Shown here: piece after piece, positions 814-19,275 of the stretch
How positions within the stretch are numbered: the stretch's first letter is position 1
How the letters are laid out: every line of letters starts with the position of its first letter
The notes under the pieces: model-generated
Told to the model about the DNA's origin: nothing
The model's database searches: none
The model's input: the letters and a program-made list of their open reading frames with translations, nothing else
Source: a virus
Taxonomy: Duplodnaviria; Caudoviricetes
Direction: 5' to 3' (one strand)
Length of the DNA: 63,472 bases
Virus record (IMG/VR): IMGVR_UViG_3300045825_000308
Span: 1 to 63,472 of that record
Translations under genes and position numbers: made by a program

Positions 814-1869
814 ATGTACACTTCAATATTAAAAGCAGATGCTTTCTTAACAGTTGATGAAGTAGCTGAATGGTTAGGAATATTTGATCAAATTCAAATA
901 CCAGCCATAGAAGTTAAGTCATTTAAAACTATTCAAGATTTAGTTTATACTTCTAAATTAGTTGGAATTTTAGGAAACGCAATAAGTATTGCTTATACTA
1001 ATGGCGCAACTGCTGGAAGTGAAGTGGTTTCTTTAATAGGAAATGCTATTTCTGTGCAAATAGAAAGTGGAGTATCAACTTCTCTCCAAATCAAAACAGC
1101 TATTGAAAATTCGGTAGCGGCTTTTGCTTTAGTTGGTGTTGCTTATAAACCATTGTCCACAGGCGTTGAAACTCAAGTCAGTCAGGTCACCACTTTATTA
1201 ACAGGTGGAACAAATGCTGGAGTTTGGATCAAAGGTGGAGAGCAAAATCGTAAAATCTTAGAAAGAATTATAAATATTTCTTGCGATAAGATAGAACAAA
1301 TAATTCAGACATCTGTTGTTGCTAAAGATTATGAAGAACAAATTGACGGAAACAATTCAAATGTGATCATGCCTTCTAAATGGCCATTAGTTTCTATAAC
1401 AGAAATTAAAATAGATTACAATAGAGGATTTTCTAGTTCAACTATTGTTAGTCCAGTGAATTATTTTGCTAGAGGATATGCAGATAAGAGACAATTACCG
1501 GGAGACACATCTTTAAGAATTATTGGAAATGATATTATCCTAAGAGATGATGGGAAAGACTCTATTGTTGGAAAGATTTTCAGCGGATCAGTTTTAGGAT
1601 CAATTAAAATAAAATATAAAGCTGGTTGGGCTTTAACTAATGCAGATATTCCATGGGATTTAAGACAAGCAGCAACATTATTGTGCGAATACTATTATTT
1701 TCAAAGAAGTAATAGAGACTTAAACATAACATCTAAAGGTGTTCGTGGAGAATCGTTCACTAAAATAAAAGACGGGATCCCAGATACTATTATGGAAATG
1801 GTTAATCCTTATGCAGATGTTTCAATGCCACTTTACGAAAAATCACAAATTAATGTGTTTGGAATTTAA
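814..1869 (+). CDS. head-tail connector (gp6/gp15-like) with inserted ~100-aa domain
   Basis: LTVDEVAEWLG helix; IKYKAGW...IPWDLRQAATLLCEYYY; IPDTIMEMVNPY. Confidence 0.75.
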   Translation: MYTSILKADAFLTVDEVAEWLGIFDQIQIPAIEVKSFKTIQDLVYTSKLVGILGNAISIAYTNGATAGSEVVSLIGNAISVQIESGVSTSLQIKTAIENSVAAFALVGVAYKPLSTGVETQVSQVTTLLTGGTNAGVWIKGGEQNRKILERIINISCDKIEQIIQTSVVAKDYEEQIDGNNSNVIMPSKWPLVSITEIKIDYNRGFSSSTIVSPVNYFARGYADKRQLPGDTSLRIIGNDIILRDDGKDSIVGKIFSGSVLGSIKIKYKAGWALTNADIPWDLRQAATLLCEYYYFQRSNRDLNITSKGVRGESFTKIKDGIPDTIMEMVNPYADVSMPLYEKSQINVFGI

Positions 1870-2909: not shown

Positions 2910-3512
2910 ATGCCAGCATCTAACGGATTTATCCGATCTAAAATTAAAGACTCAGTAAAATTTGCTCAGACTCTTGTGAAAATCTCAGGGATTAAATCGC
3001 AAAAGCCAAACGCTTTTAATGTTGATTATAACGGTAATCGCTTTCATGGCGAACTTATGACCGCTTATAACTTAATATCTGATCCAACTAAAATTACTTT
3101 TAGTTACGGTCCAACAGTAAGAGCTGCAAAAACGATTCAAAATTTAACTTATTCTGCAGTGACTACTGGAATTGGTGGAAACTTAATCTCTATTGCTTAT
3201 ACTACAGGAGCAGTTGCAGGAGCTGAAGTTGTAAGTGTTATCGGAAATGTTATTTCAGTTCAAATTGAAAGTGGAGTATCTACTGCTGCTCAAATTAAGA
3301 CAGCAATTGAATTAGTACCAGCAGCTGTTGCATTAGTAACAATTGCAGTAACTGGTTTAGGAACAACTGCTCAAGTCGCAGCGGTTGCAGCAAACCTTAT
3401 TAGCGGACTTTCTCCTTTAAATTATGAACTTCTTCTTGCTAATATTCGAATTGTTCAAAGAATTAGAAGTAGAAAGTATGTTTTTAAAGCAAATATTTTA
3501 TCAATTGTCTAA
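2910..3512 (+). CDS. virion protein made largely of the shared inserted domain
   Basis: KTIQNLTY...GNLISIAY...GVSTAAQIKTAI segment. Confidence 0.6.
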   Translation: MPASNGFIRSKIKDSVKFAQTLVKISGIKSQKPNAFNVDYNGNRFHGELMTAYNLISDPTKITFSYGPTVRAAKTIQNLTYSAVTTGIGGNLISIAYTTGAVAGAEVVSVIGNVISVQIESGVSTAAQIKTAIELVPAAVALVTIAVTGLGTTAQVAAVAANLISGLSPLNYELLLANIRIVQRIRSRKYVFKANILSIV

Positions 3513-3545: not shown

Positions 3546-5114
3546 ATGTCAAGAGAATTAAAACGTAGAAGTCATGAGTTTTTAGGAGTAGATCAGAAGG
3601 CGTGGTTAGGTGCTGAAGTCGGTGGTTTCGGCGATCTAGCTGTTACTGGATTGGTTCCAGTTGATGCTGGTGCAGTAGATTTTATTGCATGCGATATCAA
3701 ATTTGATATTCCTAGAGAAGATTCACCAAGCCGTTCTGGTCGATCAGTAGTTGCAAGACTATCTGGTAAGAAAACAGTTGAAGTAAAAGTTGAAGCTCAT
3801 ATTATACCGGGAACACCAGATAATTTAGGAAACCCAACTCTTCCTCCAATGCACCCACTTATCCTTTCGGCTTTTGGTGATGTAGATTTAACAGATCCAA
3901 CGAAAATCCTTTATAAGCTTTCTCGATTTAATGGAAACTCTTCAAGAATATTGGAAGAAGCTACGCATTATTCTAGATTAGCTGTAGGCGTTGTTGCTGA
4001 TAAACTTTCTTTCTCTCTTCCAGGAGACGGTAAAGCACAAATGTCAATGGAAGGTTTTGCACAAGATGCTTATATGGCTGGCGAAACTAATTTGGTTCAA
4101 GCAAATACAGGTGTCGCAGTTGCAGCTTCTAAAGTTATCCAAGATTTAACTTTTACTGCTGACACTGTTGGTATTAATGGAAATCTAATTCAAGTTGAAT
4201 ATTTAGTGGGCGGTGTTGCTGGAGCAGAAGTTGTTACAACAACAGGAAGTAAAATTTCTGTTCAGATTGCAACGGGAGTTTCTACAGCTGCTCAAATTAA
4301 AACAGCCATTGATGCAAACGTTGCTGCTGCATTATTAGTGAATATTGTTGTTTCAGGTGTTGGTTCTAACACTCAAGTAGCCGCTGCAGTATCTAACTTA
4401 TCTGGCGGTCTTGGATTAAATGATATTAAAGTAACTGTTGGTCACGGCTTTAGAATGGAAGTAGAAGCCTATATTGATATCATTTTAGGAACTGACGGAA
4501 ATACCGTTGTAGTCTCTCAAAGAAAAGTTGTTCAAACTTATTCAGGTGTAAATGCTGATATCGTAACTGTTGATGGTGCAGCTCTTCCAGCTACAACTAT
4601 TGGTGATTATGTTATCGGACATGCTCCAGCAAACTATAGTCCTATCGCGTCAGATCAGGCTCTGCTTGGATTGCGCGGGACGTTTACAGTAGCTGGTTTT
4701 GCAATTAGTGATGCAGAATTAATCTCTGCAGAAATTAACTTATCAAACAACTACACTAAAAAAGATTTCCTTTATGGTACAGACAAAATAAAAGGTTTTC
4801 TACCAGATAAGCGAAGAGAAGTGTCTGTTAAAATAGAGGTTCTTTTAAACAAAGAAACCCTAAGTTTCTATATGAGAAACAAACAATTCGTAGCTGAAGA
4901 TTTGACAATCACTTTAGAGCCACAAAGAATCCCAGGACCAGCTTTCACAAGCTCAGTTGGTCGGACCTGGACATTCCATATGCCAAAGGTAGAATTTTCA
5001 ATTCCCCCCATCGAAAATGGAAATGAAAGCTACGTGAGTTTGAGTTTGGAAGGAAAGTGTTTGGCAACTAGTGCTAACTCTTTAGATGATGAATTTACTC
5101 TTCAGATTTCTTAA
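3546..5114 (+). CDS. major tail tube protein with inserted domain
   Basis: directly upstream of chaperone and tape measure; tube-like C-terminal pattern (EINLSNN...RREVSVKIE...TFHMPKVEF); followed by terminator. Confidence 0.75.
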   Translation: MSRELKRRSHEFLGVDQKAWLGAEVGGFGDLAVTGLVPVDAGAVDFIACDIKFDIPREDSPSRSGRSVVARLSGKKTVEVKVEAHIIPGTPDNLGNPTLPPMHPLILSAFGDVDLTDPTKILYKLSRFNGNSSRILEEATHYSRLAVGVVADKLSFSLPGDGKAQMSMEGFAQDAYMAGETNLVQANTGVAVAASKVIQDLTFTADTVGINGNLIQVEYLVGGVAGAEVVTTTGSKISVQIATGVSTAAQIKTAIDANVAAALLVNIVVSGVGSNTQVAAAVSNLSGGLGLNDIKVTVGHGFRMEVEAYIDIILGTDGNTVVVSQRKVVQTYSGVNADIVTVDGAALPATTIGDYVIGHAPANYSPIASDQALLGLRGTFTVAGFAISDAELISAEINLSNNYTKKDFLYGTDKIKGFLPDKRREVSVKIEVLLNKETLSFYMRNKQFVAEDLTITLEPQRIPGPAFTSSVGRTWTFHMPKVEFSIPPIENGNESYVSLSLEGKCLATSANSLDDEFTLQIS

Positions 5115-6039: not shown

Positions 6040-9000
6040 ATGTCGGAAAAAGAAGTAAAATTAATTCTGACAGCAGAAGATAATATCTCTGATGTTATTA
6101 AGAAGGTTTCAGACCATTTAGGGGCTTCTGGATTAGGTCAAGCTATTACTGCTACCTCTACTGCTTTCTTGGCTATCAAAGGCGCTGCAGAAGTCGTTGG
6201 AACTGCTCTAGAAAAAGTCAATGCCATTGTTCAAGAAGGTATTAATGATGCAGCTAATGCAGAATTAGTTAATAAAAGACTAGCTATTTCTATGGCAAAT
6301 GTTGGAGATTATACAACAGAATCTTTCATAGCTATTAATGAATGGGCCGGAGCTCTTGAAACTGCTAACGGAATTTCCGATGAAGCTATTAGAAGTCAAG
6401 TCTCTTTAGGTCTTCAATATGGAATGTCTACTGAGCAAGCTAAGAAAGCAACGCAGGCAGCTATAGATTTAGCTGCTGCGACTGGCACAGACATGGAAAC
6501 AGCTTTCCGTCAATTGTCTATGACTTTAGATGGATCTGCCGGAAGAATGGGAAAATTTATTCCAGAACTTAGAAATCTAACTAAAGAACAATTGCAAAAT
6601 GGCGATGCAATAGATGTTATTGCTAAAAAATATAATGGATTTTCGGCGCAAACAGCTAACACTTATGCTGGAGCACAAAGAAAAATTGAATCAGAAATAG
6701 GAAACGTTAAAGAAGCATTCGGAAGATTGATTGCACAAAATCCTGCATACATTGCGAGCATGCAATCTAAAGCAGCAATGATTCACAACGTCTCTGAAGA
6801 GGTGGATAAATTATCAACCTATCTTCTCCAAAACGGAACGGCAATTGGGAACATGGCAAAAGCTGTTGGAACAACCGTTGCAATTGTTGGTGCATATTAT
6901 GCTGGAATAAAATTAGCAGCACTTGCTCAGACAGCGTGGGCTAGTTCAACTATGGTAGCAACAACAACTCAGAAGGCATTAGAGCTTCAAACTATAATGA
7001 CAACCTCAACTGTTAGAGCTCAAGAGATAATGGACAAAGCGTCAGCAGCAGTCAAAGCAGTTTTATCTGGACAAGTTCTTTCACAGATAGTAGCAGAAAA
7101 ATCTTTACAAGGTTCATTGATTGCAGGATTAGTAATTCAAAAAGCAAGACAAGCAGCAGACACTGCAATGATAGCAATCAAAGGAATGCTATCTGCTGAG
7201 ACCATAAAAAATACAGCAGTAGAGGCGGCAAATAAAATTGCTCTTATTGCATCTAATGCAGCAACAACAGGAATGGCAAGTGTTACTGGTTTTCTGTTAG
7301 CAGCAAGACAAGCTTTGACTTTAGAAAGTTTAAAAAATACAGCAGTCACAATTGGAAATACAATTGCACAAGCAGCAGCAGCGGTTGCAACTGGAGCTCT
7401 TGCTGTAGGAATAGGATTAGTAACTGCCGCACAGTGGGCTTTGAACATTGCACTTAACGCTAGCCCAATTGGATTGGTTGTTATAGGTGTTGCTGCTTTA
7501 ACTTATGCAATCTATAAACTTTATCAAAACTTTGATTTAGTTACTGGTGCCATTAAGATGGGATTAGGAAAAGCTTTAGAATGGATCATGATTCCGTTAA
7601 GTGCTTTGATGAGTGGTGTTGGAACTTTAATTAGCGCTTTTAATGCTGACTGGGGCAAAGCAATTGAGACAGCATCCGCTAGAATGAATAGTTATGCTTT
7701 AGAGCTTCAGAAATCTGGTCAAGCGCAAATGGATTTAGCTAATAATACTAAAAAGACAGGCACAGAACTATCAACGATGGGGTTAACTGCCGCAAGGGCT
7801 ACTGATGGTATTTCCGCAAAAATGGCTGCCGCCGCACAAGAGATAGCTAAGTTGCAAAATGCATTTGGAAAAGCGATGGAAGGAGCTCAGACTGCCTTTT
7901 CAGCCTTAAAAGACCTTTCTCCAAGAATGTCTTTAGACATGTTTAATGTCGATGCAAAAGCTTGGACAAAATCTATTGAAGATTTGAAGAAAAATGGTGC
8001 TGATTTAAAACTTAAATTAGGATTGCAACCTCAAGACGCAGCTGTTAAAGCTGAATTAGAAAAAATTAATCAACAAATAAGTTATGCTGAAGAAGCAACT
8101 AAAGCTTTGAGAATTAAAAAATCTCAAGAAGTTCGCGGTGCAACATTAAAAGAAGAAGAAATTAGATTAGCTCAAATTAAAGATAGAGAGCTTTCAGTTT
8201 CTGGCGAAATCATGATGATGCGCATCGATAACGTTAAGGCTATTCGTGATCGTTCTATAGCTATTGAGACAGAAAGAATATTAAAGAGCAGAGGACTCGC
8301 GTCTCAGGATGCTCAAGCCGGTGTTTCAGTTAAAGAACAAGCCTGGATGGATGCTAATGCAAAAGAAATGTCTGCATTTAATAATCATTTAGAACTTCAA
8401 AAACAAACAGCTGTTGGAGTTGAAGCTCAAAAACAATTAGCGCTTGCATCTCTTAAAGCATCAGCAATGAGTGGAGATACAGCTGGCGGAATGCAAGCAA
8501 AAAACGATGTCGAAGTTCAACAAGCAACAGATAGGGCCGCTATTTTAAAGCAGATGAAAGACTCTGATAAAATAAGCGAAAGTGATTATCAAAATGAATT
8601 AACAGCGATTCGTATTCAAGCAATGACTTCTAGAACTAATATGGAAGTTGCTTTAAATACTCAAAGAATTGCTCAATTAGGAATTTCACCAGAAGCTCAA
8701 CAGATAGCAATAGAAAATGCTAAAATACAAAACGCAGCGGAAGAAGATATTCTTAGAGAAAAATACGATAATACTGCAATGACAGATGAAGAATTTAAAG
8801 CTGCAGAATTAGATAGAGAATTAACGCACAAAGCAGCACTAACGGCTATTGAAGATGATTTCTCTAAGAAGAGAGAAGACAGGGACTTAAAGAATGGGGA
8901 CAAGTGGGGCGCTTTCTTAGAGACTAAAGCTAGATTAACTAGAGACAACGGAGCTGTTATTGGTTCAATGATGGCTTTCCAACAATCAGAGTATGGTAAG

Positions 9001-9540
9001 ACATTAGATAAAGGATTATCTGATGCATCAACTTTAATGGGCTCTAAAAATATTGAGATGTTTAAGATTGGTCAAGCAGCAGCGATCGCTCAAGCAGCCA
9101 TTCAAATTCCTATGTCAGCAATTAGCGCTTATACTTCTATGGCAAGTATACCAATCGTTGGTCCTGCTTTGGGTATTGCAGCAGCTGCAGCGGCTATTGC
9201 AGCGGGAAGTATGAACATTGCTAAAATTAAAGCGCAAAGACCACCTGGTGGTGCGGCCCATGGAGGAATGGATGAAATTCCGAAATCGATGGATAATAGT
9301 TCATTTATTTTGAAGGCCGGAGAAAGGGTTGTTGCACCGAATCAAAACCAAGACCTAGTTAAAGCAGTAGATAAAATTAATAATGGTGGAGCTAGTGGAC
9401 ACACTGTAAATATTTCAGTCAATGGTTCAGCAGATTCTAGCACTATAGAGAATATCAAACGAGCTGTAATGGATGGACTACGCGAGGCATCTGAACGCGG
9501 TGTGCCAGTTATCAATAGTCGCGGCATAGTAAACGCTTAA
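6040..9540 (+). CDS. tail tape measure protein
   Basis: 1166 aa, Ala-rich and helical; TAAQWALNIALNASPIG motif; C-terminal AHGG...LKAGERVV. Confidence 0.92.
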   Translation: MSEKEVKLILTAEDNISDVIKKVSDHLGASGLGQAITATSTAFLAIKGAAEVVGTALEKVNAIVQEGINDAANAELVNKRLAISMANVGDYTTESFIAINEWAGALETANGISDEAIRSQVSLGLQYGMSTEQAKKATQAAIDLAAATGTDMETAFRQLSMTLDGSAGRMGKFIPELRNLTKEQLQNGDAIDVIAKKYNGFSAQTANTYAGAQRKIESEIGNVKEAFGRLIAQNPAYIASMQSKAAMIHNVSEEVDKLSTYLLQNGTAIGNMAKAVGTTVAIVGAYYAGIKLAALAQTAWASSTMVATTTQKALELQTIMTTSTVRAQEIMDKASAAVKAVLSGQVLSQIVAEKSLQGSLIAGLVIQKARQAADTAMIAIKGMLSAETIKNTAVEAANKIALIASNAATTGMASVTGFLLAARQALTLESLKNTAVTIGNTIAQAAAAVATGALAVGIGLVTAAQWALNIALNASPIGLVVIGVAALTYAIYKLYQNFDLVTGAIKMGLGKALEWIMIPLSALMSGVGTLISAFNADWGKAIETASARMNSYALELQKSGQAQMDLANNTKKTGTELSTMGLTAARATDGISAKMAAAAQEIAKLQNAFGKAMEGAQTAFSALKDLSPRMSLDMFNVDAKAWTKSIEDLKKNGADLKLKLGLQPQDAAVKAELEKINQQISYAEEATKALRIKKSQEVRGATLKEEEIRLAQIKDRELSVSGEIMMMRIDNVKAIRDRSIAIETERILKSRGLASQDAQAGVSVKEQAWMDANAKEMSAFNNHLELQKQTAVGVEAQKQLALASLKASAMSGDTAGGMQAKNDVEVQQATDRAAILKQMKDSDKISESDYQNELTAIRIQAMTSRTNMEVALNTQRIAQLGISPEAQQIAIENAKIQNAAEEDILREKYDNTAMTDEEFKAAELDRELTHKAALTAIEDDFSKKREDRDLKNGDKWGAFLETKARLTRDNGAVIGSMMAFQQSEYGKTLDKGLSDASTLMGSKNIEMFKIGQAAAIAQAAIQIPMSAISAYTSMASIPIVGPALGIAAAAAAIAAGSMNIAKIKAQRPPGGAAHGGMDEIPKSMDNSSFILKAGERVVAPNQNQDLVKAVDKINNGGASGHTVNISVNGSADSSTIENIKRAVMDGLREASERGVPVINSRGIVNA

Positions 9541-9550
9541 GGAATAATAT

Positions 9551-10363
9551 ATGACTTTAAATAGAACATCAATAGCTTTTTTGCACACATTTGATTTAGG
9601 CAACCGTCATATTGTGGATCCTAATCAAAATATTCTTTCAGTTACATCAACAGCGGCTGGAGATTTTAATGTTAATAATATTTTAACAGAATCTACCAGA
9701 AGAGTGTGGAGAAGCGCGACAGCGTTAACAGAACAATCTATTGTCATTAAAGCAGAAAAGAAATCTACTATAGATTGTTTTGCTATTTTAGGTCACAACT
9801 TTACTGATACCGCAGTAATAAAAGTTCAAGCTAATATCTCCAATAACTTCTTAGTTCCACCGGTTACTAGATATCTTGCATGGAATGAATATATTGTAAT
9901 GAGCTCTTTGACTTTTGGTGGAGAATATGAATATTATAAAATATCTATTTTAGATCCAGCAAATCCTTGTGGATATTTAGAAATAGGTAGAATAATTGGA
10001 GGAAGGGCTCTTCAGTTAATTGATAATGAGGATATCACAGATTCTTATTCAGTAGGTAAAAAAGATCTATCAGAAACTATGAAAACTGAAGGATATTTTA
10101 GAGTATCTAATGAGAATATTATAGCCAGAACTTTCAGTGCAAATTTTCAAAAGATCTATACAACAACTGGTTTTGATACTAATTATAAAAATCTGATAAC
10201 CATGTTTAAAACAGTTAAAGTAACTAAACCTTTCTTAACTATTTTAGACGTGAACAATCCTTATAAGTTTAATATCTGGGGACAACTAACAGATATTCCA
10301 GATGATGCTTTTGGGATAAATGATTTTGTCAACTTTCCGTTAAGAATTGAGGAAGTCTTTTAA
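9551..10363 (+). CDS. distal tail (Dit-like) protein
   Basis: follows tape measure; AILGHNF, YLEIGRI and terminal IEEV pattern. Confidence 0.55.
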   Translation: MTLNRTSIAFLHTFDLGNRHIVDPNQNILSVTSTAAGDFNVNNILTESTRRVWRSATALTEQSIVIKAEKKSTIDCFAILGHNFTDTAVIKVQANISNNFLVPPVTRYLAWNEYIVMSSLTFGGEYEYYKISILDPANPCGYLEIGRIIGGRALQLIDNEDITDSYSVGKKDLSETMKTEGYFRVSNENIIARTFSANFQKIYTTTGFDTNYKNLITMFKTVKVTKPFLTILDVNNPYKFNIWGQLTDIPDDAFGINDFVNFPLRIEEVF

Positions 10364-10438: not shown

Positions 10439-12859
10439 ATGAGTCAGGCACTTTTTTTAAATCCTTTTGTTCTTACACCGGCTGCATTGACTGGTGGGTC
10501 TGTCGGCAATGGTACTCTGACAATAAACAAACTAACGCATTTTACAATCAATCAACAATATACGGCTGTTTGTACTTCAACAAGTCCTTTTACTGTTTTT
10601 AATGTGGTTGGTCAATTTGACGGAGCAGTCGGTGTTGCAGTTGTAGGAACGCAATTCAGTGATATTGATTTAAAAGTTTTCTTAACTATGCAACAAGGAC
10701 CAACACTTTTTGCCATTGGCGATACATTTAATTTTGAAGTGGCTCAAGGGACAGATGTAACGCAGCAAAATTTAGATGCTTATGATGAACTTCCTCAAAA
10801 GAATTTTGGTGTCGGACAAACTGGGTTAAATAAAGGCGATCATAACTTAAGATTCAACTCTGCTCCAACATCAGCTAGCAAAACTATTGGCAATCTTCAT
10901 TATGTTTCAACTATAGCTGGACCATTAGGTAATGGAATATCTATAGAATATGTTGCTGGATCCTATCTGGCAGCTGCAAACAGAACTATTCAATCAATTC
11001 TATATACTGCGAATGCTTCTGGCTCAGCTGGAAACAATATTCAAATTCAATACGAAGAATATACTCCATCAGTTAAAGCAATAGCAACAATTCAAAACAT
11101 TAGTTATAGTGCTGACTTGGGTGGCACTAATGGAAATCTAATAAGTATTGCCTATACTTCTGGTGGAACAGCGGGAAGTGAAGTGGCTACGGTAGTTGGC
11201 AATGCGATCAGTGTTCAAATTCAATCAGGAGTTTCTACCGCTAATCAAATCATGATTGCCATTGGTTTACACGCACCGGCTGCAGCTTTAATTGATTATA
11301 TTCCGACAGGTACTGGTTTAGAAACTCAAACAACGCAATCAGCTATATTCTTAGTTGGTGGCGTGAATGCTATCGGTGATGCGGGACATGAAGTCATAAC
11401 TGTTATAGCAAACTTAATCAAAGTAAAATTTCAGTCAGGTGTTTCTACTGCTCAACAAATTTATGATAAATTAATGGCTAGTGTTCCGGCCTTGTCGTTG
11501 ATCTCTCCAACTATTACTGGTGTGCCAGCAAGTGTCCAAACAGCTCCAATCGGACCTTTAAATCTTCAGAATGGAACAGATGTTTTAGGTGATCCAGGGA
11601 ATGAAATAGTAACTGTTCTAGCAAATGCTATTAAAATTACTTTTATTAATGGAGCCTCTACAGCAACTCAAATACGAGCTAAAATATTAGCTACACCAGC
11701 AGCTGTGGCTTTGATTACTGTTGCACTAACTGGAACAGGATCTGAATTACAAGCTTCACCAGTAGCCACAACTTATTTAAGTGGCGGCAGAAACACTGGG
11801 ACATTTGCTTTTAACGAAACAGAGTTAACAGCTCCTGGCACTTTCTATGAAGGGAACGCATCAGTTCTTTTAAAAGATATTGTTGTTCAAGGAAACGATT
11901 TTACTTTTGGTGAAACTGTTAAGCAGGGCAAAGTTACTCTTAATGACGATGTTGTTCTTAATGCACCTGGTCCTTTGATTGATAATGCACAAAAAACTAT
12001 TAATAATCTTATTCAAAATGGAAAATGTTTCTTAGTTTCTGCGTTAGACGCTAAGACAGAATGGAGTAAACCAGCTGGAACTCTTCTTTTAAATGGTGAT
12101 ATTGTCTTAGTATTTGCTGAAACAAATATTAAAAATACTCTCTTAATGTCTGCTGGTCCATTTACATTAGCAGATGGCGAACATATTTACTTTGTTGCAG
12201 ATCGTTATAGCAATATTAATGTTACTCCTGTGATATCCACAACAGTTCCAAATTCTCCAAATAGTGAAAATATTTTCCGATTAGTTTCTAGAGTTGGAAC
12301 AACTCTTTATTGGTGGGATAACACTGCCCAAAGAGAAGGTAAGAAAATCAGAATTGGAGAGGGCGGAAGTTCTGGTGCTTGGCAGGAAAAATTAGGCGTA
12401 GGAAATGGTGCTAATTTAAATTTCCCTATCTTAAGTGGCTTCTTTCCAATAGCTCAAGAATCTATATTAGTTTTTTCTAATACAACACACTTTGTTACAA
12501 CTGAGTGGACTTACAATGTTATTCAAAATCAAATTGAATTTGTCACGGCTCCAGCAATTGGCGTAGAAGTCTATGTTTATTTCTTAACAGATGGAGACAC
12601 TATTGTTGTTCCATCACCGTCTGGTGTTCAACAAGTTCTTTATCATACTTTAACAAGTTTAGAAGTGACCAACAAATATTTAACTTTGTCGGTAGCTCCA
12701 GCGGTTCCTGCTAAGGTTTTAGTAGACTACGTTGGAGGAACATCTCAAGTTTATGGAACAGACTTTTCGATAACTGGTGCTATTTTTAGTTGGCCAGGAT
12801 TAGGATTAGAAGTATTAGCAGCTGCAGGAGATATTATCAGGATCGTGTATCAAGCATAA
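10439..12859 (+). CDS. tail protein with three nested copies of the shared domain
   Basis: beta-rich; three N-halves followed by three C-halves. Confidence 0.7.
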   Translation: MSQALFLNPFVLTPAALTGGSVGNGTLTINKLTHFTINQQYTAVCTSTSPFTVFNVVGQFDGAVGVAVVGTQFSDIDLKVFLTMQQGPTLFAIGDTFNFEVAQGTDVTQQNLDAYDELPQKNFGVGQTGLNKGDHNLRFNSAPTSASKTIGNLHYVSTIAGPLGNGISIEYVAGSYLAAANRTIQSILYTANASGSAGNNIQIQYEEYTPSVKAIATIQNISYSADLGGTNGNLISIAYTSGGTAGSEVATVVGNAISVQIQSGVSTANQIMIAIGLHAPAAALIDYIPTGTGLETQTTQSAIFLVGGVNAIGDAGHEVITVIANLIKVKFQSGVSTAQQIYDKLMASVPALSLISPTITGVPASVQTAPIGPLNLQNGTDVLGDPGNEIVTVLANAIKITFINGASTATQIRAKILATPAAVALITVALTGTGSELQASPVATTYLSGGRNTGTFAFNETELTAPGTFYEGNASVLLKDIVVQGNDFTFGETVKQGKVTLNDDVVLNAPGPLIDNAQKTINNLIQNGKCFLVSALDAKTEWSKPAGTLLLNGDIVLVFAETNIKNTLLMSAGPFTLADGEHIYFVADRYSNINVTPVISTTVPNSPNSENIFRLVSRVGTTLYWWDNTAQREGKKIRIGEGGSSGAWQEKLGVGNGANLNFPILSGFFPIAQESILVFSNTTHFVTTEWTYNVIQNQIEFVTAPAIGVEVYVYFLTDGDTIVVPSPSGVQQVLYHTLTSLEVTNKYLTLSVAPAVPAKVLVDYVGGTSQVYGTDFSITGAIFSWPGLGLEVLAAAGDIIRIVYQA

Positions 12860-13837: not shown

Positions 13838-14086
13838 ATGTCTTTGTTACAATTAAAATGGTCTAATGCTGGTGGAGGAACTTTTCAAAAAGAAGTTCCC
13901 ACCGGCACTATAAATGGTTCGAATGTAAACTTCGTGACCAGTCAGGTCCCCAAGACGGGATCTCTTTTAGTTTTTGTAGATAGTATCTTAGAAACAAATT
14001 ACACATACACAAATGGAACTAAAACTATAGCATTTTCTGTGGCGCCGATACTTGGGCAAAACATTTATGTGACTTATAGTTATTAA
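13838..14086 (+). CDS. small structural beta-domain protein
   Basis: EVPTGTINGSNVNF...IAFSVAP; resembles a C-terminal domain of 10439..12859. Confidence 0.6.
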   Translation: MSLLQLKWSNAGGGTFQKEVPTGTINGSNVNFVTSQVPKTGSLLVFVDSILETNYTYTNGTKTIAFSVAPILGQNIYVTYSY

Positions 14087-14095
14087 GAGGAATAT

Positions 14096-17000
14096 ATGGC
14101 TGGAAAAATTCAGAACGCAGACATCAAAACAGAAGCAGAATTAATTGCTTTAGGAGCAACTAAAACTGAATTACCTAATACTACTAAGGTGTATTCTCCA
14201 AAGACTACCAATGTCCTTGAGACAGACTTAAGAAAGAATAATGATGTAGCTACTACTGATCCAGCAGTAGGGAACGATAGCTCTCAGAATTACGAACCAG
14301 GAAGCAGATGGTTAAATACTACTAGTGGTGAATTGTATGTTTGTATGTCGAATGCTACTGGAGCAGCCGTTTGGAAAGAACAAGTTGGAGCAACGGCTAC
14401 ACAAATATTAACTAATAAAACTTTAACTTCTCCAGTTTTAAATAGCCCAAGTGTAGTTACTCCAAGTAGATTGGATGCTAAGCCAGATACTTATGCAAAT
14501 TTAGTCACCTATGCGTCTACTGCTACTGATGGTCAATTTTGTTTTGCAACAGACACTAAAGTAATGTACCAAGTTATCAACGGACTATTAGCTGATGTAG
14601 GAAGTGGCGGTGGAGTTGGTAGCTTAGATGTTTTATCATCTGATTCTGCAGATAAAGCTGTCTTAGCAGATTACACTCAAACCAACTTAGAAATAGTATC
14701 CACTCCAATAGTATTACATGGAACTAAATCTTTTAGACTTCAACATACTACTTCAATTAAATCATTTAAGAAAGTTATAGCAGTTGATAAAAAATTCAGA
14801 GGTAAAAATAATACAGTGACTTTAGATGTGTTATCTACAGCAACTTCTGGAAACCTTAATATTTTATTTTATGATGAAACTAATGCTGCAAATTTAGTAG
14901 CTTCTCAAAGTATCGCTACAAACTCTCTTCCTCTAACTGCAACTACAGCAAATGCTAGTAATCAATTAACAGGATTAACTCAAGCATTTTACAATACTTT
15001 AAAAGTTGGTATGGTTATTACTGGTTCAGCTATTCCGGTTGGAACTACTATTACTGCTTTAGCTCCATCAACTTTAACTGCTACCATTTCTCAAAATGCT
15101 ACTGGAGTAAGTACAGGAATTAGAATTTCAGACTTAGTTCAAAAGAAAACTTTTAGCTTTGATGTTCCAAATAACTGCTTAAGTTTATCTTGGACAATTT
15201 CAAGCGTTGTTGAAGCCGCAGTAGAATCTTATATTGATGATGTTGTTGTTCAACTAACTGCTCAGGCTTTGAGTTCAACTTCAATAACAGTTCCAGTTAA
15301 TAATAATTATTCTGGTTTAATTGTTTCAGGAATGACCATTGGAGCAACAACTACTGCTCCAACAAAAGGAACTATAGTTACAGATAAAATTGTTCACTCT
15401 AGATTCGAAAATAGATTAAAAGCTTCTTTTCAATTTAATCAATCTGCCGGTGGAACTGCTGGTAGTGGAGATTATTTATTCACTCTTCCTAATTCATTAA
15501 GTTTTGATTCTAATCAAATCACTCCTTATGCTGGTGCTGGATGGTCAGGAAACAATGGTATTGTGTCTGCATATGTTGGATCTGCCGATGTAACTTACGG
15601 CGGTATTTATATGGGGATTGGTAAAGCCTTTGCCTATAGTTCAACGCAATTTAGGATATATATAGAAACTACGACTACTGCAGGTGGTGGAGCTCTTGGT
15701 TATTTACTTGGGTCATCAAATTTTCCTTTAAGCGGAGCTGCAGCTATTAATGCAGAAATAGACGCACCTATCGCTGGATGGTCATCAAATCAAACAACCA
15801 CAACAACAATCCCACTTACTACAGCGCAACTAGTTCAGCAGAGTGATAGTACATTAAAACTAAGTACCAATAACGGATACGGATCTACTAACACTAAAAT
15901 TAGAAGATTTGTGAATATAGATAAAAATATAGGTTCTTCGATTTCTTATCAAGATTCTGCAACTTTTGGAGCAAGCTTCACCGTACTAGAAGCAGGAGAA
16001 TTTCAGATAACCTATTATGATAACTTTACATCAGCACAAGGAATGGGATTAACAGTCAATAGCGCGGAACTCACTACTGTAATTGACTCAGTTTTAACCA
16101 CTTCTCGATTAGCTAACATTACAACGCAAGGAGCAGGTTCTCCTGGAAATGTATCATGGTCTGGGTATTTAGAAGTTGGTGACGTAGTTAGAGTGCATAC
16201 TTCAGGAGTTGCCACAACTACTGCGGCTAACAGTGGATTTACAATCTCAAAACAAGGCTCCCTAAAACAACTCAATCCTTCAAGTGATTCAAAAATTACA
16301 ATCCCAACGCATTCATTAAGATTTGAAGGTTGTTCTACACGTGGTTCTACCGATACAGCAATAGTTAAATTCGACACTCAAACAATTACTCAAGGTGATG
16401 CTTGGTCTGTTGTTAATACTGCGGCTAATGGAACTGTTGTTACGATGTTGAAAGCTGGGAAGTTAACAGTATCTTCTACTGTTTATTTAGCAACAACTGG
16501 CTATACATTTATAACAAAAAATCAAGCAATATTAACTGCAAATCCAGTAACGTCTGAGATAGTTGCAAGTACTTACGGTAATGCCAATCAGGTTTACAAT
16601 GCGTCTGGAACAGTGGATGTTGTAGTTGGCGACAAGATCAGAATTGCAACCAATGTAACACCTACATCTGATTTTGGAAACAGACTTACGTTCTCCCTCA
16701 CAGAAACCTCAATCCCAGCTAACTTTTCAAATGTTTTACCGCAATGGAGTCAGTCGGATTCTTCAATAAGACTAGATACAGGTAACGGTACTGGGTCAAC
16801 AAATACTCAAGTAAGAAGATTTGCTAGTAATCCTGACAATCTTGGAACTGCAATATCCTATACTGATTCAGCAACTCTAGGTGCTAGTTTCACGATTAAT
16901 GAAGATGGGGATTATACAATAAGCTACACCGATACCACTACAGCACTAGCAGCTATACAGTTAGTAAAAAATCAAACCACCAATGCGGTAGGTACGAATA

Positions 17001-18598
17001 TTTTAAACGTATCCTCAATTCAAGCTGGGGTTACTGGACATGTTTCAGCTAACCCTTATCTCGTAAAGGGTGATGTAATTAGAGCAGTAGTAAACAACAT
17101 CGCATCTTTTGATTCAGTCTCTACTTCGGCTAAATTCACAATCTCAAAAGTCGGTAAACCAAATCTAACTTCAGTCGATGTTACTCCTTTTGTAAATATG
17201 AAGACGACTGATGTTGAGGCTATTACCTATTTTGGAGCACAGAGTGGATTAACTGATAGATCAGGTGAAATTCAGTTTCCGATTGGATCAGTTCAAAGAA
17301 CCAACAATGGAATTATTTCTGTAGTTGACGATACTGCAAGCACTAGAACTAAGTTCACTGCACTTAAAAAAACAATAATTAATGTATCTTTTTCATGTTC
17401 AGCGTCTACTGCTACTACTTTTCCAATTATTTCAAAAAATGGGGTAGAGGTATTACAAGGATCAATGGCAGGTGTTACATCAAATCGTGAAACCGTATCA
17501 GGTAGTATAAGTTTAGAGGTAGGGGATTTTATCACTGTCGGAACAAATAATGCTGTAGAAAATAGTGCAACTACTTTAGATTTATTAATTACCGCAACCG
17601 CAGACAACAACGCCACAGCTTCACCAACTCAACAAGTTTCTTCTGATACAATGAACTTTGCGTTTAAAGCTACTGCAATTGATCCTGCAGTTGATGCGGT
17701 TGGTACGTTTAATACTTATGCGTTTACAGCGAACTCTAGTACACCAACTATAACAGCGTCTAATCAATCAACTCAAACAAGTTCATCTATGAATATTAAT
17801 GGAGTTCAACTATTTAGTAGAGCTTTTAATGCAAATAGTGTTGCTGGACAACCAGTTAGATTTGAAATATTTATAGGTAAAGGATTAAAAAGTAATCAGG
17901 TAGATATGTACGCGGCAGCTAGTAAAACAAATTCATTTTCTTATAATAGAATGATTAGAACGTTGTCTTCAGAAGGCGGAACAGAGGTTAGTTATAGTGA
18001 AACATCAGGTATATTGGTATTAGATGCAGCTACATCAGCAATAGCTAATACAGGCAGAACTTTAGATGCAGTTGGGTTTGTGCCAACTTCAGGTTACTTC
18101 GTTTTCAATGCTTCAAAATCACCATCGCTTGTTACGATACCAAACTTAACTCAGAGGATTGCTTATTTGAGTGATGTGAAGGCAAATACAACAGCGGCTG
18201 GAACAGCATTTGCAACTGTTTATGGTACGAGAACATTGAATACTTTGGTAGACAATACTGGGATTGTAACTAGTTTAGCAGCCAATCAATTTACACTAAA
18301 TAAAGGTGTTTATAATATAGACGCCACTTGTCAAGCATATCTTGCAAATGCGCACAGGGCAAGAATTAGAAATATTACAGATGGCACAACGATATTGCTT
18401 GGCTCCTCAGAATATGCTAACGGCTCTACTCAAAATACAAGTAGAGTTAATGGAGAAATAACAATTACATCTTCTAAAACTTTTGAGTTACAGCATTTTA
18501 CAACCACAGCTACAGCAACAAATGGTTTAGGAGTTCCAGCTTCATCTGGCGAATCTGAAGTTTATGCAACTTGCAAAATTACTAAAATACGAGATTAA
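14096..18598 (+). CDS. large tail fibre / receptor-binding adhesin
   Basis: 1500 aa, Thr/Ser-rich; TQILTNKTLTSP motif; tandem C1q-like domains. Confidence 0.8.
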   Translation: MAGKIQNADIKTEAELIALGATKTELPNTTKVYSPKTTNVLETDLRKNNDVATTDPAVGNDSSQNYEPGSRWLNTTSGELYVCMSNATGAAVWKEQVGATATQILTNKTLTSPVLNSPSVVTPSRLDAKPDTYANLVTYASTATDGQFCFATDTKVMYQVINGLLADVGSGGGVGSLDVLSSDSADKAVLADYTQTNLEIVSTPIVLHGTKSFRLQHTTSIKSFKKVIAVDKKFRGKNNTVTLDVLSTATSGNLNILFYDETNAANLVASQSIATNSLPLTATTANASNQLTGLTQAFYNTLKVGMVITGSAIPVGTTITALAPSTLTATISQNATGVSTGIRISDLVQKKTFSFDVPNNCLSLSWTISSVVEAAVESYIDDVVVQLTAQALSSTSITVPVNNNYSGLIVSGMTIGATTTAPTKGTIVTDKIVHSRFENRLKASFQFNQSAGGTAGSGDYLFTLPNSLSFDSNQITPYAGAGWSGNNGIVSAYVGSADVTYGGIYMGIGKAFAYSSTQFRIYIETTTTAGGGALGYLLGSSNFPLSGAAAINAEIDAPIAGWSSNQTTTTTIPLTTAQLVQQSDSTLKLSTNNGYGSTNTKIRRFVNIDKNIGSSISYQDSATFGASFTVLEAGEFQITYYDNFTSAQGMGLTVNSAELTTVIDSVLTTSRLANITTQGAGSPGNVSWSGYLEVGDVVRVHTSGVATTTAANSGFTISKQGSLKQLNPSSDSKITIPTHSLRFEGCSTRGSTDTAIVKFDTQTITQGDAWSVVNTAANGTVVTMLKAGKLTVSSTVYLATTGYTFITKNQAILTANPVTSEIVASTYGNANQVYNASGTVDVVVGDKIRIATNVTPTSDFGNRLTFSLTETSIPANFSNVLPQWSQSDSSIRLDTGNGTGSTNTQVRRFASNPDNLGTAISYTDSATLGASFTINEDGDYTISYTDTTTALAAIQLVKNQTTNAVGTNILNVSSIQAGVTGHVSANPYLVKGDVIRAVVNNIASFDSVSTSAKFTISKVGKPNLTSVDVTPFVNMKTTDVEAITYFGAQSGLTDRSGEIQFPIGSVQRTNNGIISVVDDTASTRTKFTALKKTIINVSFSCSASTATTFPIISKNGVEVLQGSMAGVTSNRETVSGSISLEVGDFITVGTNNAVENSATTLDLLITATADNNATASPTQQVSSDTMNFAFKATAIDPAVDAVGTFNTYAFTANSSTPTITASNQSTQTSSSMNINGVQLFSRAFNANSVAGQPVRFEIFIGKGLKSNQVDMYAAASKTNSFSYNRMIRTLSSEGGTEVSYSETSGILVLDAATSAIANTGRTLDAVGFVPTSGYFVFNASKSPSLVTIPNLTQRIAYLSDVKANTTAAGTAFATVYGTRTLNTLVDNTGIVTSLAANQFTLNKGVYNIDATCQAYLANAHRARIRNITDGTTILLGSSEYANGSTQNTSRVNGEITITSSKTFELQHFTTTATATNGLGVPASSGESEVYATCKITKIRD

Positions 18599-18600
18599 GA

Positions 18601-19275
18601 ATGTATAAAATATTAAAAACTTGTACAAAGTGTAAAGACATTAAGACTATTGATATGTTTTATAAAGACAGAAAAAAAATAGATGGATTATGTTCCCACT
18701 GTAAAATGTGCAAACAAATAGCTAATAAAAAATGGATAGATAATAATCCAGAAAAAATGAAGCAGTCTACTAATGCATGGATAGAACGTAATAAAAGCAG
18801 ATTTTTACAAAAATCTAGAGATTATTATTATAACCATAAAGAAGTTGCATTAGCTAAATCAAAAGAATATGATAAATTAAATAGAGCGACAAAGAGAATT
18901 TATAGTTTGAATTATTATAAAAATAATCCAGACAAAATGAAAAATTATCATAAAAAATCGTATCAGCGAAATAAAGAAAAAATTATAAAGCGTAGCAACC
19001 TAAGACATGTTCTAAAAAGAAAAAGTAGTATCATTTCGCAAAAATTAAATATGATTGGTGAAATTACTTATATATATACATTAGCTAAGTTTTTATCTAA
19101 GATATTAACGATAAGAGTTTCTATTGACCACATAATCCCCTTAAAAAACAAATTTATTTGCGGGTTAGATGTGCCATGGAATATGCAGTTATTAGAATTA
19201 AGAGACAATATAAGCAAGAATAATAAATTTGATGGAACTTATAATAATAGTGGATGGTGCAATCATGTTATATAA
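18601..19275 (+). CDS. HNH homing endonuclease
   Basis: N-terminal CxxC...CxxC; IDHIIPL...CGLDVPWNMQLL...N..KNNKF. Confidence 0.85.
   Translation: MYKILKTCTKCKDIKTIDMFYKDRKKIDGLCSHCKMCKQIANKKWIDNNPEKMKQSTNAWIERNKSRFLQKSRDYYYNHKEVALAKSKEYDKLNRATKRIYSLNYYKNNPDKMKNYHKKSYQRNKEKIIKRSNLRHVLKRKSSIISQKLNMIGEITYIYTLAKFLSKILTIRVSIDHIIPLKNKFICGLDVPWNMQLLELRDNISKNNKFDGTYNNSGWCNHVI

Follow-up and report, generated by a model that had tools for sequence, protein, structure and literature searches.

The stretch of DNA analyzed here, referred to as the window, is a virus contig of 63,472 nucleotides (nt) from IMG/VR (record IMGVR_UViG_3300045825_000308, Caudoviricetes); it is rated 56% complete, and the window is the entire record. 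An open reading frame (ORF) of 806 amino acids (aa) at 10439..12859 on the + strand encodes a virion protein in which three copies of one domain are very probably nested inside one another, in a region (10871-11788) that corresponds to aa 145-450. The gene lies 3' of a 1166-aa tape-measure-sized gene (6040..9540) and a 270-aa gene (9551..10363). Upstream of these, the gene order begins with a head-tail adaptor-like gene (814..1869) and continues through neck and terminator-like genes, a gene for a 200-aa protein (2910..3512), the tail tube gene (3546..5114) and two small genes; downstream of the 806-aa gene are genes for a 310-aa minor tail/fiber-like protein, an 82-aa protein and a 1500-aa protein. 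The 270-aa gene occupies the usual place of the distal tail protein, an identity that rests on position, and its PHROG matches are solely to families of unknown function.

The 806-aa protein is composed of a conserved N-terminal domain, the nested array and a C-terminal part. The N-terminal domain (aa 1-145; 10439..10873, +) forms the entry point of the array and is the best conserved portion of the protein, with most of the invariant columns of a full-length MAFFT alignment built without profiles (alignment A1) found at aa 3-138. The C-terminal part (aa 455-806; 11801..12859, +) is highly variable in length, the tail that follows the array ranging from ~200 to 1400 aa among orthologs. For this part only weak tail-fiber-like leads were found, namely DUF4183 and Phage_T7_tail clusters with scores of 0.81-0.82 and template modeling (TM) scores of 0.37-0.44.

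The array contains two kinds of piece. The N pieces are ~26 aa long, share the pattern T-I-x-x-(I/L)-x-Y ... G-N-x-I-x-I-x-Y and, by their alternating residue pattern, look like a β-hairpin; the C pieces are ~65 aa long and share the pattern (A/P)-G-x-E-(V/I) ... G-(V/A)-S-T-A-x-Q-I ... L-x-x-G. The strings that an earlier reading of the DNA (the original prediction) had quoted for these pieces are present exactly as given there, and only the central copy is contiguous. All pieces lie on the + strand and were placed with profile hidden Markov models (HMMs). N1 (aa 146-171, HMM columns 1-26; 10874..10951) is predicted to open the outer domain, D1, and is followed by an 8-aa linker (10952..10975); N2 (aa 180-205; 10976..11053) is predicted to open the middle domain, D2, and is followed by a second 8-aa linker (11054..11077). 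The innermost copy, D3 (11078..11362), consists of N3 (aa 214-239), a 5-aa junction and Ca (aa 245-308), the sole contiguous N-C pair in the protein. A 6-aa linker (11363..11380) then leads to Cb (aa 315-379, HMM columns 27-91; 11381..11575), predicted to close D2, and a further 6-aa linker (11576..11593) leads to Cc (aa 386-450; 11594..11788), predicted to close D1. Both outer domains are split at the identical place, between HMM columns 26 and 27, and their pieces are separated by 109 and 214 residues. Only two pairs of DNA repeats were found between 10800 and 11900, of 27 and 30 nt and with 70-73% identity, and the array copies are old at the DNA level.

Models built from the six N and C pieces alone were used to scan the six-frame translation of the window, taking every ORF of 50 aa or more. 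In exactly three other ORFs they detected a single N with a single C immediately after it: 814..1869 (independent E values of 1.1e-09 for N and 1.2e-17 for C), 2910..3512 (1.1e-09 and 2e-19) and 3546..5114 (1.1e-07 and 4.4e-14). Since N and C are contiguous in these three ORFs, and the next best ORF has whole-sequence E values of 1.1 (N) and 0.21 (C), N plus C is a genuine unit of ~95 aa, repeated far beyond chance. The single copies, here termed cassettes, lie on the + strand at aa 37-132 of the head-tail adaptor-like protein (922..1209; adaptor assigned by phrog_442, E 1.9e-12), at aa 72-166 of the 200-aa protein (3123..3407) and at aa 194-288 of the tail tube protein (4125..4409), which matches Pfam Phage_tube_2 on aa 353-504. 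Identity among the three cassettes is 52-61%; with D3 they share 47-56% of their residues and with D1 and D2 38-48%, D3 being the array copy closest to them.

Homologs were gathered from a 5.8-billion-protein index (102 proteins) and from a library of 1.84 billion representatives (the best 150 of 576 with E ≤0.001), and 225 proteins, including the four from the window, were scanned with iterated N and C models. The commonest order of pieces was NNNCCC (78 proteins), followed by NC (48), NNCC (29) and NCNC (12), with rarer strings in the remainder, and the strings were bracket-balanced in 176 of the 225. A strict stack parser was also applied, using one 91-column HMM and requiring that each closing piece resume at the column where the open domain had stopped; it passed 163 proteins, 65 at depth 1, 30 at depth 2 and 68 at depth 3. 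The same 91-column model covers opening pieces (columns 1-26), closing pieces (27-91) and contiguous copies. The spacings are also largely constant, with 5 aa between N and C in 196 of 274 junctions, 8 aa between N and N in 151 of 220 linkers and 6 aa between C and C in 169 of 254, and the 5-aa junction of D3 is the commonest length among contiguous copies elsewhere.

Ninety-five of the homologs share the N-terminal domain of the 806-aa protein and were treated as its orthologs. The numbers of N and C pieces are equal in 84 of them: 77 have three of each, 6 have two of each and one (P0077) has one of each. Seven have two N and three C pieces, mostly with a degenerate N, two have three N and two C, and the last two are P0114, which is truncated (three N and one C), and P0041, in which no N was detected. 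Ten related viral loci were compared with the window, and the tail-tip ortholog is nested in all nine that carry the complete gene, as NNNCCC in eight and NNCC in one (L008), while L010 ends after three N pieces. The tip proteins of the closest relatives, L001 and L002, are 72% and 69% identical to that of the window. Trees of the domain units and of the N-terminal domains, which carry no support values, give hints that D3 units cluster and that depth-2 orthologs are scattered.

The pairing of N with C pieces was addressed by covariation in 78 three-deep orthologs, no two of them more than 80% identical over the columns used, scored by mutual information with average product correction (MIp). 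Among the top 60 N-C column pairs, 47 fall in the nested blocks (N1-Cc 18, N2-Cb 10 and N3-Ca 19), and the remaining six blocks hold 13; each of the five alternative pairings collects 6-23 of the 60, and when the C half was dealt among the proteins in 20 shuffles the nested blocks collected 20-28. Seven pairs outscore every shuffle, all of them in nested blocks, and the position pairs (23,12), (13,38), (13,42) and (23,61) recur across these blocks. The 40 position pairs that covary best in 186 independent contiguous domains show an excess of 0.058, 0.078 and 0.091 in the nested blocks compared with 0.003-0.027 elsewhere. The top 300 pairs of alignment A1 include seven each for N3-Ca, N2-Cb and N1-Cc, and one for N1-Ca. 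In the same alignment the linker between N1 and N2 covaries with that between Cb and Cc (0.235, versus 0.082 with the Ca-Cb linker), and the linker between N2 and N3 with that between Ca and Cb (0.219, versus 0.132 with the other C linker), which is exactly what a ladder with two linkers per level predicts. Co-divergence follows the same order, with pairwise-identity correlations of 0.46 for N1-Cc, 0.40 for N2-Cb and 0.40 for N3-Ca and of 0.16-0.34 for the others, and the conservation ranks agree (N2>N3>N1 and Cb>Ca>Cc).

A mean-field direct-coupling analysis (DCA) model trained only on 94 non-nested domains was used to score the pairings. Its double-centered coupling energies are positive in the three nested cells only (+11.5, +8.0 and +9.8), and it prefers nested over parallel pairing in 26 of 29 two-deep proteins and, for the outer pairs, nested over crossed pairing in 60 of 78 three-deep proteins. 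The held-out control of this model put the true partner in first place in 38 of 94 cases, a figure confounded by shared lineage. When contacts were scored by the mean-field approach on 264 domains, local and gap signal predominated and no fold topology emerged.

Taken on these data, the pairing N1-Cc, N2-Cb and N3-Ca is highly probable. The order N1-N2-N3-C3-C2-C1 proposed in the original prediction is borne out by covariation, co-divergence, linker covariation and the grammar of the homologs. Its view that there are two linkers per level, rather than a tandem array, also agrees with linkers that covary in nested order, and the homologs of other depths that it had raised do occur, with depths 1, 2 and 3 among the orthologs and up to 8 in other proteins.

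The deepest of these proteins, P0111, has seven opening pieces (columns 1-26), one full copy and seven closing pieces (columns 27-91). P0124 is also eight deep, and its domains are split after HMM column ~46, just before a segment with helix-like periodicity. In P0081 and P0091 the split is near column 40, at the G-N motif between two strand-like alternating stretches, and in P0080 the outer domain is in three pieces and hosts two child domains, one per site. P0149 and P0130 each combine several split points, openers of columns 1-26, 1-46 and 1-46 being followed by closers of columns 36/39-91, 46/47-91 and 27-91; only nesting explains such last-in-first-out closing. The domain family uses at least three split points, and opener and closer always sum to the 91-column domain.

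Other modules were observed within some of these arrays. A second module of ~75-80 aa stands between the closers of P0149 (aa ~318-390, 445-526 and 640-720) and P0130 (aa ~332-408, 460-541 and 653-730), so that two module types are interleaved; in P0130 it matches phrog_2885 (baseplate wedge subunit, E 7e-13), and P0149 matches phrog_10938 on aa 652-740. In P0169 a copy of the domain is apparently split (aa 582-639 and 915-968, HMM columns 1-53 and 36-91) by ~275 aa of non-domain sequence, and the domain may also host foreign inserts.

The best explanation of the whole, and a likely one, is that an uncultured long-tailed phage has in the 806-aa protein a conserved structural component of its tail tip, which carries three self-nested ~95-aa domains as a projecting side arm. 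The chain is predicted to make the first 26 residues of D1, an 8-aa linker, the first 26 residues of D2 and the second 8-aa linker, then all of D3, and to return through the two 6-aa linkers, finishing D2 and then D1. It would leave the array beside its point of entry, aa ~145 and ~455 meeting at the base. Because the exit is next to the entry, the trio would form a lateral arm of three domains, tipped by D3, and not a spacer between the flanking parts of the protein. Linkers so constant in length suggest that the geometry is fixed, and in three dimensions the array may take the form of a rod or of a cluster. The N-terminal domain (10439-10873) was observed to covary with the first 8-aa linker (10952-10975) in 9 of the top 300 pairs, and the base of the array may pack on this domain.

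Several points weigh against this architecture. The coupling-energy support in P0111 is modest: the nested assignment is in the top 0.55% of 40,320 assignments and only in the top 4% without the central pair, and the best assignment recovers 3 of the 8 nested pairs. No close homologs of P0111 were found. Covariation itself is blind to whether a contact is made within a chain or between subunits. The homologs were gathered with the nested region as the query, so the set is enriched for nested forms and does not give true frequencies, and 49 of the 225 N/C strings and 62 of the 225 stack parses are ill-formed; these mostly look like truncated or undetected pieces. Unbalanced forms do exist: P0032 (aa 146-414) has two N pieces, resembling N1 and N3, and three C pieces, and lacks N2, the 6 aa between its second N and first C providing no space for a third N. 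By sequence the PDB searches found no solved relative, and no binding domain family was detected; the role is proposed by analogy.

How the nested array arose is a separate question from its architecture. The original prediction held that the same loop had received repeated insertions, which is an inference only: both levels are indeed split at 26|27, but the family has at least three split points, and a test of N-C co-duplication in P0111, based on similarity matrices, was negative (r = -0.02, with 53% of permutations as good). A possible, if doubtful, alternative is that the same architecture arose by separate tandem duplications of a 34-aa N unit and a 70-aa C unit, with selection equalizing their numbers. 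Separate half-unit duplications fit the P0111 result, in which the similarity of N pieces does not follow that of their nested C partners, and the unbalanced P0032, and the N and C units each show constant, period-like spacing. Whole-domain insertion fits the behavior of the cassettes and the proteins with multiple sites: gain or loss of the entire cassette is directly seen in three other genes, as described below, and whole domains are found in three different host loops (P0080, P0149 and P0130), which tandem duplication of half-units cannot yield. The copies are too old for DNA to show either history.

Given the nested pairing, contacts within one chain are quite probable. The pairing might instead be made between subunits, N1 completing the last C of a neighboring chain as a domain swap within a trimer or hexamer, and the product would then be an interlocking collar and not a free arm. 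Tail-tip proteins are usually oligomeric, and a swap of this kind would leave the same covariation signal as contacts within a chain. We consider it unlikely: the contiguous single cassettes have the same 5-aa junction in different oligomeric contexts (adaptor and tube), which points to a self-contained fold, and the linkers, which are short (8 and 6 aa), constant and mutually covarying, are as expected of a single chain that runs out and back.

It is very improbable that the region holds two adjacent independent arrays, three β-hairpins and then three copies of a different module that do not pair with them one to one, which is how the string A-A-A-B-B-B would naively be read: N and C form one contiguous unit in three window genes and in most homologs, their numbers agree in most orthologs, their covariation is strong and specific, and opener and closer complete the 91-column domain even where the split column differs. 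A parallel pairing (N1-Ca, N2-Cb and N3-Cc, giving a ring) or a crossed one (N1-Cb and N2-Cc) is scarcely credible, for although parallel pairing of P0111 ranks in the top 8% with the 94-domain training set, it drops to the 43rd percentile with a larger one, the two pairings collect 17 and 23 of the top 60 covarying pairs versus 47 for the nested pairing, the mixed split points close last-in-first-out and the central junction is 5 aa long, like that of contiguous copies.

The single cassettes were compared with the corresponding proteins of the related loci. The tail tubes of L001, L002 and L007 are 423, 425 and 419 aa long versus 522 aa in the window, and all are without the cassette; in a three-way alignment with those of L001 and L007, aa ~190-290 of the window tube face a clean gap, and the flanks in L001 and L002 are 66-77% identical. 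The adaptors of L001 and L002 (258 and 271 aa) lack aa ~24-137 of the window protein, and their counterparts of the 200-aa protein (99 and 112 aa) lack aa ~66-171. Because the cassette is missing from the nearest relatives by clean gaps of ~100 aa, the domain is an optional, portable module in the adaptor, the 200-aa protein and the tube. These gaps support the modular decoration system that the original prediction had suggested, whereas the self-targeting that it attached to this system is without support: beyond the two short pairs, no repeats were found at the DNA level, identity between the copies is 38-61% and no signature of mobility was noted. In P0083 a two-deep nest (aa 152-342) was observed after an SU10-type adaptor domain (PF24175, aa 7-141, E 3.3e-07); the module is thus also used on adaptors of a different phage type.

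Given that three further virion proteins (adaptor, 200-aa protein and tube) carry this domain as an optional cassette, we read it as an exposed accessory module for surface decoration or adhesion on neck, tube and tip, which the nested trio would project from the tail tip. By analogy with known decoration modules such a role is plausible, with the case for and against it about evenly balanced. Fraser and colleagues (2006) are said to have worked on immunoglobulin (Ig)-like domains that decorate siphophage virions. In lactococcal 936 phages, carbohydrate-binding modules are described in the neck passage structure, the major tail protein and Dit (PMC6669499). Like these siphophage decoration modules, the domain described here is one small module that occurs in neck, tube and tip, and close relatives may have it or lack it. 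Unlike it, the siphophage Ig-like and carbohydrate-binding modules have known folds and are usually terminal additions or single insertions, and self-nesting has not been described for them in the literature searched. A Pfam scan of the four window proteins and of eight further carriers found no Ig-like or carbohydrate-binding family.

The domain family is unnamed. The 806-aa protein has no match to a Pfam (E up to 0.1), PHROG or NCBIfam family, including any Tal or hub family; on nine carriers the domain is unmatched in PHROGs, and its neighbors in the ESM Atlas are unnamed viral clusters. In the PDB, the single protein and profile A1 gave no match, profile A2 gave one match at chance level (E 0.79), and profile A3, from the domain alignment, gave E values of 0.38 on T4 gp23 (residues 127-165) and 0.61 on a fimbrial protein. 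The match to gp23, the T4 major capsid protein, covers positions 45-84 of the A3 profile, where the pattern suggests strand-helix-strand, and is probably due to chance. No sequence match to the sandwich-barrel hybrid motif or HABAS family was found in Pfam (E up to 0.1), and the resemblance to it is architectural only.

One candidate family, PF17481 (Phage_sheath_domII, the β-sandwich of Mu-type sheaths), did not hold up, its best score of 25.7 bits (P0027) being below the cut-off of 31.4 bits. The profile has 98 positions, a length similar to that of the domain, and the matches, although below threshold, span it from one end to the other (P0112 aa 319-411 on profile positions 5-97, E 0.0077; P0164 aa 68-167 on 4-97, E 0.34). 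Five of nine domain sequences match it, with a best E of 0.17. In the window N2 and N3 plus Ca match with per-genome E values of 0.019 and 0.027 (11.4 and 11.0 bits), and hmmscan gave no match. An hhalign comparison of a 26-sequence domain profile with the Mu gpL domain gave a probability of 0.13%, with a single sequence as the template; only near-identical Mu-like sequences and one distant sequence were found for that template.

Nested domains are known from other proteins. In the T4 sheath protein gp18 and in flagellin, the chain runs outward through the domains and back, with outer domains inserted in inner ones and the termini together; the nested domains there have different folds, whereas here the same domain is nested in itself. 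The closest known case is SI3 of the cyanobacterial RNA polymerase β' subunit, in which sandwich-barrel hybrid motif (HABAS) domains are inserted into one another and for which the literature describes a six-level nesting (PMC13114784) and a crystal structure of eight motifs, four of them formed from distant parts of the chain, measuring 150 x 50 Å (PMC10895346). Same-fold recursive nesting is thus already published, and the principle is not new here. As in SI3, one domain family serves recursively as host and guest and the outer domains are discontinuous, and the SI3 body is elongated; in the phage array, too, host and guest belong to one family and the pieces of the outer domains are predicted to pair across the insert. 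Unlike SI3, which lies in an enzyme and is irregular and partly tandem, the phage array belongs to a different fold and family, lies in a virion protein and is strictly regular: every level is split at one and the same column and uses linkers of 8 and 6 aa. The phage family also reaches depth 8, with three alternative split points. No self-nesting in phage virion proteins was found in the open-access literature searched.

Domain insertion is common, and recursive self-insertion has been documented in very few systems, of which SI3 is the clear published case. The phage family would represent a second and much more regular case, with natural depths of 1, 2, 3 and 8 and three split points. It raises a folding question, in that an outer domain cannot finish before the inner ones have been made, and it makes the evolution and rigidity of self-nested proteins accessible to study. 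It also defines a widespread, unnamed virion surface module of neck, tube and tip that is swapped in and out among close relatives. The domain family is widespread in uncultured phages and unusually prone to hosting its own copies. A broader proposal, which we neither favor nor disfavor, is that this family is a general builder of rigid arms and fibers by recursive self-nesting. The outgoing chain would then lay down as many as eight half-domains and complete each of them on its return, docking would be possible at any of three surface turns, and whole copies could be added or removed without unfolding the rest. If true, this would be a principle of fiber building distinct from tandem repeats, coiled coils and β-helices, and a natural scaffold for length-programmable protein design.

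Further downstream in the window are genes for a DnaE-like polymerase, helicases, SbcCD, UvsX and the large terminase. The phage has no cultured relative: the window polymerase is at most ~30% identical to that of any GenBank phage, and tblastn of the 806-aa and tube proteins against 50,697 GenBank phage records gave no match. The G+C content is 29-39% along the window, in which no tRNA genes and no sheath gene were found. A major capsid or portal gene was not identified among the window proteins scanned, which fits the completeness rating.

Other observations concern the genes that follow the 806-aa gene. An endonuclease VII-like gene (18601-19275; phrog_1035, E 3.4e-18) lies directly after the tail genes and is followed by an overlapping 287-aa ORF without a family match. 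The 82-aa protein (13838-14086) has a weak match to phrog_11431 (virion structural protein) and shows no significant similarity to the end of the 310-aa protein. It does resemble the C terminus of the 806-aa protein (12356-12859), with a score of 73 compared with 30.5 ± 5.3 (maximum 53) in shuffles. The 1500-aa protein (14096-18598), which has no Pfam, PHROG or NCBIfam match, contains an internally duplicated unit of ~230 aa (aa ~567-800 and ~870-1100), with a local alignment score of 278 compared with 50 ± 9 in 200 shuffles.

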